Shown here: positions 1,784 through 12,632 of the stretch, piece by piece
How the letters are laid out: each line of letters opens with the position of its first letter
Numbering within the stretch: the first letter of the stretch is position 1
DNA from: Clostridiales bacterium
Lineage (GTDB): Bacteria; Bacillota; Clostridia; TANB77; CAG-508
Assembly: GCA_003507395.1 (NCBI GenBank)
Contig: DNVW01000012.1
Span: forward strand, 68,285-132,284
Reading direction: 5' to 3'
Length of the DNA stretch: 64,000 bases
Notes under the pieces: generated by a model
Databases searched by the model: none
The model's input: the letters and a program-made list of their open reading frames with translations, nothing else
What the model was told of the DNA's origin: nothing
Made by a program: the position numbers and the translations under genes

Positions 1784-2365
1784 TTACTTTGCTCTCCTTA
1801 GCTGGTCTATTTTTTTATTTTTTCTTCTTTTTATGCTTTTCATTTTCATATCTCTATTAAATAAGAATAATAGTATAAGTATTATTACAATAAATATAGT
1901 TGTAACTTTTGATTCTAGTATTTTTATTACCAATCCTAATGATGGAATTCTTTTTACAAATTTTCCTTTTATCTGTTCATATTTTATTATTACATTATTA
2001 TTGTAATAATTGTTATCTCCCTTAGTTGTGTAATTCGATTTTTCTCCTAACCCTTGTATTTTAGTTATTCTTTGTACTTTTATTATTCCATTTTCATCAA
2101 ATATTATTATGTCTTCTAAATTCAAATCTTCTGGAGTACATTGCTTTGCTAATATTAAATCATTCGGCTTGATTGTTGGCAACATCGTTTTATCTTCTGC
2201 CACATATATTTTTGTTTCGCCTATTTGTAATTCTAATTTTTTATTAAATATGCCATATACTGTATTAATTACATTATATAAAATCATTAATATTAAGATT
2301 AATCCTAATATTTTTCTTGGCAATGCAAATATTATTTTTTTTACTTTATTTTCTCTTATCCTCAA
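1784..2365 (-). CDS. SipW-type signal peptidase paralog lacking catalytic Ser and His (pseudo-peptidase)
   Basis: It has the same topology as the upstream gene (N-terminal and C-terminal TM). KGDNN is conserved, but the SMEPT box reads TMLPT and the THRIV box reads VQRIT. It overlaps the upstream gene by 20 nt, so it probably uses a TTG start. Confidence 0.6.
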   Translation of the reverse strand: MRIRENKVKKIIFALPRKILGLILILMILYNVINTVYGIFNKKLELQIGETKIYVAEDKTMLPTIKPNDLILAKQCTPEDLNLEDIIIFDENGIIKVQRITKIQGLGEKSNYTTKGDNNYYNNNVIIKYEQIKGKFVKRIPSLGLVIKILESKVTTIFIVIILILLFLFNRDMKMKSIKRRKNKKIDQLRRAK

Positions 2366-2936
2366 TTTTTTTCTTTTCTCTCCTCATTTTTTTCTTTTCT
2401 TCTACTCTTCTAGTATTTATATATATAATCAATGCCAAGTTTAGTAATAATATAACATAAATTTTATCTTCTAGTAATAATATAATATTTCCTATACGTG
2501 GAATTTTAAATACTAGTGTACCAATTATCTGTTCATATGTTATTTCTTCTATATCATTTACTTCGTTATTATCCCCTTTAGTTACATATTTTTTCTCTTG
2601 GTCTGCATAATTTATTTCTACAATTCTGTGTGTTATTGTCTTTCCTTCTTGTTCAAATGTAACTATATCATCTACATTTATTTTACTTTTTTCTATTCCA
2701 CTAACAATTATTATATCTCCAACATTAATTGTTGGCTCCATACTATTTGTTGTAATTATATATGCCTTATATCCAAATATGGTTTTTGCATTTGTTTGGT
2801 TTAATGTAGATTTAGTTATAAGAAAAATATTATATAACAGTATTACTATAACAACAAATAATACATTTTTTATTATTTGTCTTCGTCTTTTATTTTTTTC
2901 ATTTCTTTTTTCTATTTGTTCAATATTATACTCCAT
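2346..2936 (-). CDS. sipW: signal peptidase I, archaeal/ER-type (SipW family)
   Basis: All three catalytic boxes are present: NSMEPT (Ser), ITHRIV (His) and KGDNN. It has an N-terminal signal anchor and a C-terminal TM. Its RBS is AAAGGA. Confidence 0.75.
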   Translation of the reverse strand: MEYNIEQIEKRNEKNKRRRQIIKNVLFVVIVILLYNIFLITKSTLNQTNAKTIFGYKAYIITTNSMEPTINVGDIIIVSGIEKSKINVDDIVTFEQEGKTITHRIVEINYADQEKKYVTKGDNNEVNDIEEITYEQIIGTLVFKIPRIGNIILLLEDKIYVILLLNLALIIYINTRRVEEKKKMRREKKKIEDKRK

Positions 2937-2967
2937 TATATTCCTTTCTTCTGTGTATTGTGTATTT

Positions 2968-11013: not shown

Positions 11014-11063
11014 CTTTTATTTTCCCCATTTTAGTTAAGATTGTTGAAAATTTACTTTTAATT

Positions 11064-12632
11064 CTAGATTTTAGATTTTAATATTTTGCCAAATTCGCAT
11101 TCACTTTCTAATTCATCTATATTTATATTGTTCTTTAACAAGTTTTCATTCATTTTAATTTTTTCTAATGCTACTATTGCAGTATCTAAATTATCTTGTT
11201 CTAAATCTTCTTTTGTTATATTTATTTTTAATAATTGATATCTATCTTTTATTATTACCAAAACATCTTTTTCGTTTAACATTGTTATATTGTCCAAAAT
11301 TGTATAATATGGCCAATTTACAAATTCTCTTAATTCTTTAATAAGTTGTTCTATTTCTTCTTCTGTTATATCTTTTATATTGTCTTGTATACAATAATAT
11401 ACATATGTATAATATGAACTTGCTAGTTTAAGTGCATCTAGCACTGTAGAATTTTCATTTATTTCATTATATATTTTATCTCTTATTTTGTTTCTATCTA
11501 GTTCTATGTATAATTGTTTAATTTTTAAAATTAAATCATTTGCTTCTGCTAATAATTTTTCATTTGATCTCTTAAATAAGCCTCCACCATTTATTTTATT
11601 GTTTAGTTTCATTAGTTTAGCTTCTTGGGTAGCAATTTCTTTTTGTGTTTGAGCATATGCATTTTTGTTTTGTTCTTTTTCTGCATATTTTTTTCTCATA
11701 TCATCTATTATAAATTTAAATTTTAAATAATTTTTATATTCATATAAGCTATTTAATAATTTGTATAAATTTATATTTATTTCTGTTTTTTTGTTTTCAT
11801 CTGCTTGTTCTAGTATATCTTTAGAAATAAATTTTTCATAACTTCCTTTTACTAATTTTTCTGTATAATCTTTTGTGTTTAGCTTGCCTGTATAGAAAGA
11901 ATTGACTGTATTATATTTGTCTGCTTCTTCTTTCTCTAACAATTCTGCTTTCATATCTTTATATTCTTTTAGCATTTGCCCTATTGTAGAATTTTGTAAT
12001 ATTTCTTCTTGTCTTCTTTCATAATATTTATCTATATTTTTTTCATTTTCTTTATATAAGTAAAATATATTTAATCTAATATGAATAATTATGTCCGGAC
12101 ATTTCCAGTATATTTTTTCAAATTCACTTTTTATTCTATCAGAATTCACATTGCCTTTTTCCTTCTCTTGAAAAAATACTTGCATATATTCATTCACATA
12201 TTTACTATATGTAAAATCTTTTGGCATTAAAACAACGCCAACCTCTTTAAATTTTTCGATAGCTTTTAATATTGCTTCATTAACAACTTCCAAGTTCTTT
12301 TTATAAAATATATTTAAGCTAAATAATATTTTATCTAAATTCATTTTTTCGTATGAAGTTTGGAAGTTATTTATTACATGTAGCTCTTTTTCTTTATTTA
12401 TCACTTCTTCTTCTAACTTTACAATTTCTTCAGCTTTTTTTATTTCTTCTAATTTTCCTATTCTTTTTTCCATTTCTTGAATAAGCGTTTCTTTTACTTC
12501 TATAAATTTTTTCTGATAGTCTTGTATTTGAGCTATGCATGCTTTTATATTTTTTGCATTATTTCTAGGAAATGTAGCCAGTATTTCTTTGCTTGCTTCT
12601 ATTTGTTCATTTACTTCTTTTAAATTATTCAT
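11064..12632 (-). CDS. coiled-coil protein, 522 aa, cytoplasmic, unknown function
   Basis: Long ORF with heptad-like, Glu/Lys-rich sequence and no signal peptide. It lies 50 bp upstream of the giant gene on the same strand with no terminator between them. Confidence 0.7.
   Translation of the reverse strand: MNNLKEVNEQIEASKEILATFPRNNAKNIKACIAQIQDYQKKFIEVKETLIQEMEKRIGKLEEIKKAEEIVKLEEEVINKEKELHVINNFQTSYEKMNLDKILFSLNIFYKKNLEVVNEAILKAIEKFKEVGVVLMPKDFTYSKYVNEYMQVFFQEKEKGNVNSDRIKSEFEKIYWKCPDIIIHIRLNIFYLYKENEKNIDKYYERRQEEILQNSTIGQMLKEYKDMKAELLEKEEADKYNTVNSFYTGKLNTKDYTEKLVKGSYEKFISKDILEQADENKKTEININLYKLLNSLYEYKNYLKFKFIIDDMRKKYAEKEQNKNAYAQTQKEIATQEAKLMKLNNKINGGGLFKRSNEKLLAEANDLILKIKQLYIELDRNKIRDKIYNEINENSTVLDALKLASSYYTYVYYCIQDNIKDITEEEIEQLIKELREFVNWPYYTILDNITMLNEKDVLVIIKDRYQLLKINITKEDLEQDNLDTAIVALEKIKMNENLLKNNINIDELESECEFGKILKSKI

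Follow-up and report, generated by a model that had tools for sequence, protein, structure and literature searches.

A conserved gene cluster of uncultured Clostridia and Bacilli encoding a predicted giant beta-helical secreted protein, a SipW-type signal peptidase and its degenerate paralogue

The DNA analysed here, referred to as the window, is a 64000-nucleotide (nt) stretch of a Clostridiales bacterium genome (GenBank assembly GCA_003507395.1, contig DNVW01000012.1, positions 68,285 to 132,284 of the forward strand) with a low GC content of about 25–33 %. Near its left end, five minus-strand genes, lettered A–E, lie in the same direction between a promoter (12904–12932) and a terminator (1714–1744); the convergent gene beyond them is F, and the genes of a second arm are lettered from G onward. 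Gene A (12629–12754) encodes a 41-amino-acid (aa) helical peptide and is a conserved open reading frame (ORF) that was called on metagenome contigs. The ORF listing supplied gene B (11064–12632), encoding a 522-aa cytoplasmic all-alpha protein, and gene C (3085–11013), encoding a secreted giant protein of 2642 aa. Gene D (2346–2936) encodes a 196-aa signal peptidase I of the SipW type, i.e. the endoplasmic reticulum (ER)/archaeal type, and gene E (1784–2365, with a TTG start) a 193-aa SipW paralogue that is predicted to be catalytically dead. An initial annotation of this DNA had described four co-directional minus-strand genes, which agreed with the ORF listing, and had placed the 522-aa gene at their head; gene A was overlooked and in fact stands first.

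The genes are closely spaced. The stop codon of A overlaps the start codon of B (ATGA), B and C are 50 nt apart, the same gap as reported initially, and D and E overlap by 20 nt. C and D are separated by a 148-nt spacer (2937–3084) carrying a repeat insertion. No minus-strand terminator-like site was found inside the cluster in a consensus scan, again as first described, and the same scan located the terminator at its end, a 14-bp hairpin with an A-run on one side and a T-run on the other, which can therefore act both ways, for the operon and for gene F; this too had been proposed before. Upstream of the operon, the sigma-70-type promoter P1 (TTGACA-17-TATAAT, minus strand) matches the consensus at 12 of 12 positions, and two such perfect sites occur in the 64-kb window compared with 0.07 in shuffles. 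A second promoter-like sequence, P2 (TTGCGT-17-(TGc)TATAAT, with an extended -10), was read from the minus strand at 12791–12819, approximately 35 nt upstream of gene A. This layout suggests that genes A–E are co-transcribed as one unit, and the suggestion is supported by relatives of the locus, in which the C–D gap is only 11–26 nt compared with 148 nt here. The gene order recurs in dozens of species, beyond a chance arrangement. A divergent gene of the XRE helix–turn–helix family (13008–13340, plus strand) uses the operon promoter region in the window's species only; it was considered as a SinR-like regulator of the system and rejected because it is not conserved beside the locus in other species.

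The C–D spacer is GC-rich and strongly structured (z −3.74). It includes a partial copy (3040–3090) of a dispersed palindromic intergenic repeat of approximately 115 nt, full copies of which are found at 44140–44240 and 52520–52650; the arms of the repeat, GGGGACGTTCCTTTTTGTGACAnTTTGTCAC ... GTGACAAAATGTCACAAAAAGGAACGTCCCC, have the look of repetitive extragenic palindromic elements or miniature inverted-repeat transposable elements (REP/MITE-like). A search of Rfam with the spacer returned no family, and its interpretation as an operon-specific RNA element was rejected on this ground and because it is a copy of a dispersed repeat. Judged from its sequence, the spacer is a lineage-specific insertion outside the conserved design, which might modulate read-through.

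Assignment of D and E to the ER-type peptidases was made with TIGR02228, the model of archaeal/ER-type signal peptidase I (cut-off 51.85 bits), against which D scored 106.1 bits and E 57.4 bits, both above the cut-off; D also matched Peptidase_S24/S26. Against NF046067, the equivalog model of Bacillus SipW (cut-off 190 bits), the scores were 89.9 and 45.1 bits, respectively, and as it falls below this cut-off D is of the same type as Bacillus SipW and not its orthologue. For SipW, Tjalsma et al. reportedly established in 2000 that Ser and His, together with the Asp of the GDN motif, are catalytic. All three residues are present in D (Ser65 in SMEP, His103 in THR and Asp122 in GDN). The corresponding motifs in E are TMLP and VQR, with Ser replaced by Thr and His by Gln and with Asp retained, and E is on account of the lost Ser and His a predicted pseudo-peptidase. 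In the alignment, both proteins have hydrophobic transmembrane (TM) stretches at their N- and C-terminal ends and share the same topology. The SipW-type assignment made initially was thus confirmed, as was, at the level of prediction, the inactivity of the paralogue.

Relatives were collected by a B-alignment scan covering one genome per species, which found them in 91 species-representative genomes, and the ORFs of 92 loci were classified with hidden Markov models (HMMs) built from the locus families. The SipW-fold genes, of which there are up to five per locus, were then grouped by position. The complete Ser-His-Asp triad was present in all peptidases of position D (47/47 located after C and 6/6 after B, i.e. 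53/53) and in all 42 of position H, the gene that precedes the small secreted protein I of the second arm. In all 32 genes of position P, after a DUF2357 gene, Ser and His were kept and Asp was replaced by Ile, Val or another residue. Proteins of position E, after D, had a degenerate triad in 35 of 38 orthologues, and those of position G, at the start of the second arm, were mostly degenerate, with 23 of 26 lacking Ser or His. In a neighbour-joining tree these positional classes formed separate clades (D 47/53, H 42/42, E 37/38, P 26/32 and G 21/26), which indicates that they are old, specialised paralogues. The pairing of an active with a dead peptidase accordingly looks, from these sequences, like a conserved design and not a recent pseudogene.

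Protein C contains just one hydrophobic segment, at aa 6–34, and no C-terminal anchor. Searches of Pfam, NCBIfam and PADLOC with the whole protein and with five segments of it gave nothing significant, a PDB sequence search found no relative, and family scans and hydrophobicity revealed no autotransporter barrel, two-partner secretion (TPS) domain, LPXTG motif or SLH domain. Sixteen YGG units, mostly 24–26 residues long, occupy aa 1327–1797 (5623–7035, minus strand), where the YGG motifs recur every 24–34 residues from position 1333 to 1768 and would form the coils of a parallel beta-helix. An AlphaFold2 (AF2) model of aa 1690–2642 (3088–5946, minus strand) was all-beta (pLDDT, predicted local distance difference test, 84.5; pTM, predicted template modelling score, 0.70) and comprised the end of a beta-helix and, after it, Ig/FN3/macroglobulin-like beta-sandwich domains arranged in a chain, as was expected of the giant protein in the initial annotation, which had called it beta-helical and secreted and proposed a fold prediction. 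In a structure search with this model, bacterial adhesins were the best matches and tailspikes ranked lower. C thus combines the regular coil repeats and the likeness to solved beta-helices that define the parallel beta-helix adhesin fold. The model suggests that mature C is elongated and rod-like, with N-terminal domains leading into a long parallel beta-helix and then into beta-sandwiches strung along its C-terminal part, an architecture that by analogy would be typical of adhesins and matrix fibres. Sequence conservation is even from end to end, at about 40–50 % identity per 50-residue block. The exact protein is present on 17 metagenome contigs, and full-length homologues, down to 27 % identity, were found only in metagenome-assembled genomes (MAGs) of uncultured Clostridia and Bacilli.

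Of the two genes ahead of C, gene A, translationally coupled to B, belongs to a family of conserved 35–47-aa ORFs with the consensus ELxxLYxKVxxFIxFLxKEEK, and the HMM of this family matched 77 ORFs across the loci. Protein B, previously described as a coiled coil, was modelled by AF2 as a compact all-alpha protein of 25 helices (pLDDT 90.5, pTM 0.83) with no long uninterrupted heptad helices, so that the coiled-coil description does not stand. Sequence searches of Pfam, NCBIfam, PADLOC and PDB with B and with the convergent protein F gave nothing significant. On the basis of the model, B appears to be a novel fold, and A and B both appear to be without a known family or fold relative.

Linkage of these genes was examined in 86 non-identical loci, 80 from the species-representative scan and six from metagenome contigs. 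Carriers of B included Clostridium sp. CAG:567, CAG:914, Firmicutes bacterium CAG:321, UBA MAGs and MAGs labelled as Bacilli, Tenericutes or Erysipelotrichaceae. A match to the giant gene adjoined A and B in 84 of the 86 loci; of the two exceptions, one is a 3.6-kb contig and the other (L074) has a fragment of C at the locus edge. Among the 73 loci with at least 2300 aa of the giant, 53 had an active SipW-type gene no more than 700 nt from the A-B-C block. In most of the other 20, a degenerate SipW-like gene came straight after C-A-B and the active one lay approximately 1.2 kb away; almost every untruncated locus had a SipW-type peptidase next to the block or close to it. All seven metagenome loci around the giant contained SipW-type genes, A and B. 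Six homologue loci at 27–40 % identity all had a 35–45-aa ORF, a B homologue and SipW-type genes, in rearranged order. The comparison of related genomes that had been proposed initially therefore showed that, in different species of uncultured Clostridia and Bacilli, the giant gene family is linked with SipW-type genes.

The signal region of C (aa 1–31; 10921–11013, minus strand) has a basic n-region, an h-region of approximately 20 residues and a c-region GLSRA followed by NN. The predicted cleavage site, which the initial annotation had asked for, lies in GLSRA↓NNIKEI, with the proposed cut (arrow) after Ser-Arg-Ala31, and the mature protein would start at Asn32 with the peptide NNIKEIHTTIIDYGEK. 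C of the window is of a class here called type-1, in which the h-region ends with [AG][FL]x[ND]-S-[RK]-A-[NES]-K-[IV]-I-[DE]-I. The S-[RK]-A motif obeys the −3/−1 rule and is kept in type-1 homologues despite an identity of only about 35–40 % at the N-terminus. Type-2 signals, from MAGs labelled as Bacilli, have TY[SG][DE]xI[LI][DE]F in place of S-[RK]-A, which resembles the motif [TF]YS[KR][FY]xS in small secreted protein I of the same MAGs. D accompanied 49 giants with S-[RK]-A and none of the 15 with TY[SG][DE], which adjoin G-H-I genes; in the case of five further S-[RK]-A giants without D, every contig stops inside C. This association fits a dedicated relation between D and C, as judged from sequence, and the initial proposal of a dedicated peptidase–cargo module gains from it, D forming its own clade that was found only with the S-[RK]-A signal type. 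No match to the TIGR04088 HMM for SipW-cognate signals was obtained at E ≤ 10 on the N-termini of C (both signal types), I, I-rev or J, although the HMMER filters may hide very weak ones. As this model matches none of the locus N-termini tested, the C signal is placed outside the TIGR04088 class, and the cargo signal, read from the alignments, is a locus-specific S-[RK]-A motif and not one of the TasA class. Type-1 h-regions also keep a residue with a polar or charged side chain (E, Q, K or R), placed four to six positions ahead of their end (Glu22 in the window, codon 10948–10950). Such a residue is unusual in signal peptides and may be a recognition feature for D or E.

The reading that we favour, with moderate confidence, is that the A–E unit makes and exports a giant fibrous surface protein, with D as its dedicated peptidase, E as a partner of D, and A and B as helpers. 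C would be directed to the Sec translocon by its long N-terminal signal-anchor, which the adjacent D would then cut off, most likely after Ser-Arg-Ala31. D would be a specialised paralogue retained for C alone, whilst E, a dead copy with the same topology, would probably be a non-catalytic partner that holds or positions the substrate. A and B would be cytoplasmic factors specific to C, acting in its chaperoning, targeting or regulation.

Several observations weigh against this reading. Cleavage of C by D is something that we infer from motif and synteny, and the association of the motif with the D clade tracks two or three deep lineages and so represents few independent events, maybe one or two. 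The comparison with TIGR04088, which had been suggested initially as a check on the signal of the giant, came out negative. The h-region of C, at approximately 20 residues and with its Glu, could remain as a membrane anchor, and in the window read-through might be attenuated before D and E by the structured 148-nt spacer, which has a weak hairpin plus U-run immediately downstream of C. A structure search with B gave no fold match. The linkage of giant homologues to SipW-type genes, which the initial annotation had made decisive, holds in nearly all loci and is broken, within the DNA covered, by one CAG:321 locus (L075), in which C-A-B is followed by 10 kb without a SipW-type gene; upstream, approximately 0.8 kb was examined.

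Part of this evidence would also suit an alternative in which C keeps its N-terminal segment as a type II anchor and D and E process the small secreted proteins, or in which D acts non-proteolytically or as a regulator, comparable to the second function reported for Bacillus subtilis SipW. The length of the h-region with its conserved polar residue, the lack of any other anchor in C and of a TIGR04088 match on it all speak for such a scheme, as do the type-2 genomes, where no dedicated D/E pair lies beside C and the sole nearby active peptidase is common to the small proteins. It is, however, hard to reconcile with a D clade that directly follows C or B in 53 loci and is missing where the c-region of C differs, with small proteins that already adjoin their own active peptidase H (complete in 42 of 42), and with the conservation of an S-[RK]-A motif that fits the −3/−1 rule. 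We regard retention of the anchor as unlikely.

The site of the structure was also considered. The host lineages have sporulation genes, some of them near the locus (YabP/YqfD, SpoIIID, Spo0A and YabG-type U57), and fibres rich in beta-helices and Ig-like domains are plausible as spore appendages, so that the module could build a spore-surface appendage or exosporium fibre and not a vegetative surface structure. This would sit poorly with the perfect sigma-70 (SigA-type) promoter ahead of the operon, where no recognisable sporulation-sigma promoter was seen, and with a signal peptide and signal peptidase, which imply membrane crossing from the producing cytoplasm; the sporulation neighbours, moreover, vary between genomes. 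A spore-surface role was for these reasons rated as distinctly improbable.

The initial annotation also overlooked that the operon forms one of the arms of a larger conserved locus, of approximately 14 genes, that runs past the left end of the window and could be followed on a longer contig, L001. Beyond the window the order there is G, H, I, J, K, a 510-aa McrB-like protein, a 367-aa DUF2357 protein and the SipW-like protein P, an arrangement shared by about 35 type-1 loci. Type-1 genomes also keep, between the arms, the convergent gene F (723–1715, plus strand), encoding a 330-aa cytoplasmic protein whose C-terminal half is strongly conserved (LPY...SRFREA...HPA.I.ACK..DELD.YL.CLE.NEL) and which is enlarged to 513–576 aa in a third arrangement, A-B-Sip-F<-C. 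The possibility that the cytoplasmic proteins B, F and K are paralogues of each other was rejected, as hhalign probabilities were below 1 %.

The second arm (G–K, L001 20574–24779) begins in the window with the 5' part of G (1–440, minus strand; 146 codons), which is cut by the left end of the window. G is a degenerate SipW-like membrane protein with a low-complexity tail rich in Glu, Thr and Lys, and H is by its sequence of the active SipW type. I (202 aa) and J (313 aa) are small secreted proteins with S[KR]Y or GRY motifs after a TM segment, and K is a 329-aa cytoplasmic protein. TIGR04087, the TapA model, gave weak full-length matches in five of 32 members of family I (best E value 3.6e-4, below the 80-bit cut-off). 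Pfam and PDB searches with the I and J families, including profiles, found no relatives. An attempt to bridge family I to TasA by a profile search of 5.8 billion proteins was abandoned: the 1603 relatives included none that was named and, apart from one unrelated match, no Pfam domains. Since I and J are without Pfam or PDB relatives even by profile, a TasA-like fibre at this locus is put forward as a hypothesis and not as a finding. The presence in the second arm of its own SipW pair, active and dead, and of small secreted proteins with weak TapA matches makes it probable that a single surface or matrix structure is the product of the whole locus.

Embedded in the type-1 locus after K (L001 24800–27929) are the McrB-like AAA+ protein, the DUF2357 protein and P. 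The AAA+ domain of the 510-aa protein matched PADLOC PDC-M26A (2.3e-34) and McrB in PDB (E value 0.0055), and the protein has N-terminal TM segments where McrB has its DNA-binding domain. The 367-aa protein matched DUF2357 (8e-12), and family and PDB searches detected no PD-(D/E)xK nuclease domain in it, the PDB sequence search returning nothing for this protein. The McrB-like protein is 65–68 % identical between loci whose giants are only about 30 % identical, and the pair is not found beside most type-2 loci. A mobile or defence island was also considered, in which C would be phage-derived (tail-fibre-like) or would mask receptors alongside an McrBC-like pair and the adjacency of a signal peptidase would be incidental. 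We give this very little credence: we saw neither an integrase nor genes for phage structure or replication at the locus, which is flanked by housekeeping genes in the window's species (such as pfl, the aminoacyl-tRNA synthetase gene tRNA-synt_2 and mfd) and recurs in the 91 species-representative genomes found by the scan. Conservation is even over all 2642 aa of C, adhesins outrank tailspikes among its structural matches, and the absence of the McrB-like pair from most type-2 loci also counts against a defence island.

A broader and more doubtful proposal is that, in uncultured gut Clostridia and Bacilli, the locus of approximately 14 genes encodes an undescribed surface-fibre machine. Its parts would be three to five SipW-fold proteins in active/dead pairs, the secreted proteins I, J and C, the cytoplasmic proteins A, B, F and K, and an McrB-like ATPase, membrane-anchored and nuclease-less, with its DUF2357 partner; with every part included, we think the proposal unlikely to be right as a whole. 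Cleavage would expose related N-terminal beta-strands in C (...SRA↓NKIIDITA) and I (...S↓KYES..ANVDIAFY), and the C rod, a vastly enlarged tip or anchor of the TapA/AbpB type, would attach to a TasA-like donor-strand fibre. The pseudo-peptidases would serve as assembly chaperones that bind signal peptides, and the AAA+ pair would power assembly.

The module is present in many uncultured lineages of the human and animal gut (MAGs of the CAG:567, CAG:914 and CAG:321 types), at least one of which has a genome of only about 1.55 Mb; for a genome of that size it is a large investment, and it is therefore probably central to attachment or envelope building. To our knowledge, almost all SipW-type peptidases known to be dedicated to a cargo serve TasA-like biofilm fibres, and the cargo is approximately 30 kDa. 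Here the SipW–TasA logic would be extended to a rod of approximately 280 kDa, with a dead peptidase partner and two obligatory cytoplasmic proteins. For these clades, C is a defined candidate for the principal surface antigen or adhesin. The locus lends itself naturally to testing how ER-type signal peptidases select their substrates, and E may exemplify a pseudo-enzyme subunit of a bacterial signal peptidase. Literature searches for a link between SipW and giant proteins, or for a DUF2357/McrB membrane system, returned nothing relevant; the systems described are SipW–TasA, BsaA, the archaeal bundling pili (ABP) and the Tad-type TANB77 pilus, none of which is this module. A connection with the published TANB77 pilus was considered and rejected, as the latter is a separate system encoded by a Tad-type cluster. 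The initial view of an uncharacterised export module for a surface fibre, matrix component or adhesin agrees with these searches, the fibre role being proposed by analogy.

The non-catalytic partner proposed for D has a counterpart in eukaryotes, where the signal peptidase complex combines the Ser/His peptidase Sec11 with the obligatory non-catalytic membrane partner Spc3/SPCS3. The D–E pair may be likened to this arrangement, with the difference that E is a paralogue of D and not a homologue of Spc3. Beta-helical adhesins offer a second comparison for C. They include the autotransporter passengers IgA1 protease, pertactin, Hap and UpaB, the TPS adhesins HMW1 and EtpA, the SRRP of L. reuteri and the tapirins of Caldicellulosiruptor; unlike these, C has no autotransporter barrel, TPS domain or known anchor, its host belongs to a Gram-positive lineage, and its export appears, from the genes present, to proceed through Sec and a dedicated SipW-type peptidase.

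In archaeal AbpA/AbpB and in TapA, a bigger accessory protein with distal beta-sandwich domains has been proposed to nucleate or anchor the fibre, and the core of TapA resembles macroglobulin domains (PMC9245690). The modelled C-terminal domains of C are likewise macroglobulin-like. The archaeal system, in contrast, uses a generic peptidase; donor-strand exchange at the present locus is conjecture, and profile and PDB searches with I and J found no sequence or profile link of locus proteins to TasA or AbpA.

The closest parallels are tapA-sipW-tasA of B. subtilis and sipW-bsaA of Clostridium perfringens, in which an ER/archaeal-type peptidase gene adjoins that of the presumed secreted cargo and the products are surface or matrix fibres (PMC9245690, PMC9674648, PMC7395162). 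Here too a peptidase gene adjoins that of a predicted secreted structural cargo with a special N-terminal signal, and the TapA model gave its weak full-length matches in five of 32 members of family I. The differences are considerable: a 2642-aa beta-helix/Ig rod stands against a jelly-roll subunit of about 260 aa, in keeping with the initial remark that the cargo far exceeds known SipW cargo; neither a TIGR04088 signal nor a Peptidase_M73 domain was found here; D, at 89.9 bits, stays under the 190-bit equivalog cut-off of SipW; and the locus adds the conserved dead paralogue E, the obligatory neighbours A and B and up to five SipW-fold genes. Judged by these sequences, the module would be an uncharacterised relative of the SipW–TasA system, with a cargo of unprecedented size and, besides a conserved pseudo-peptidase, two protein families that are new.

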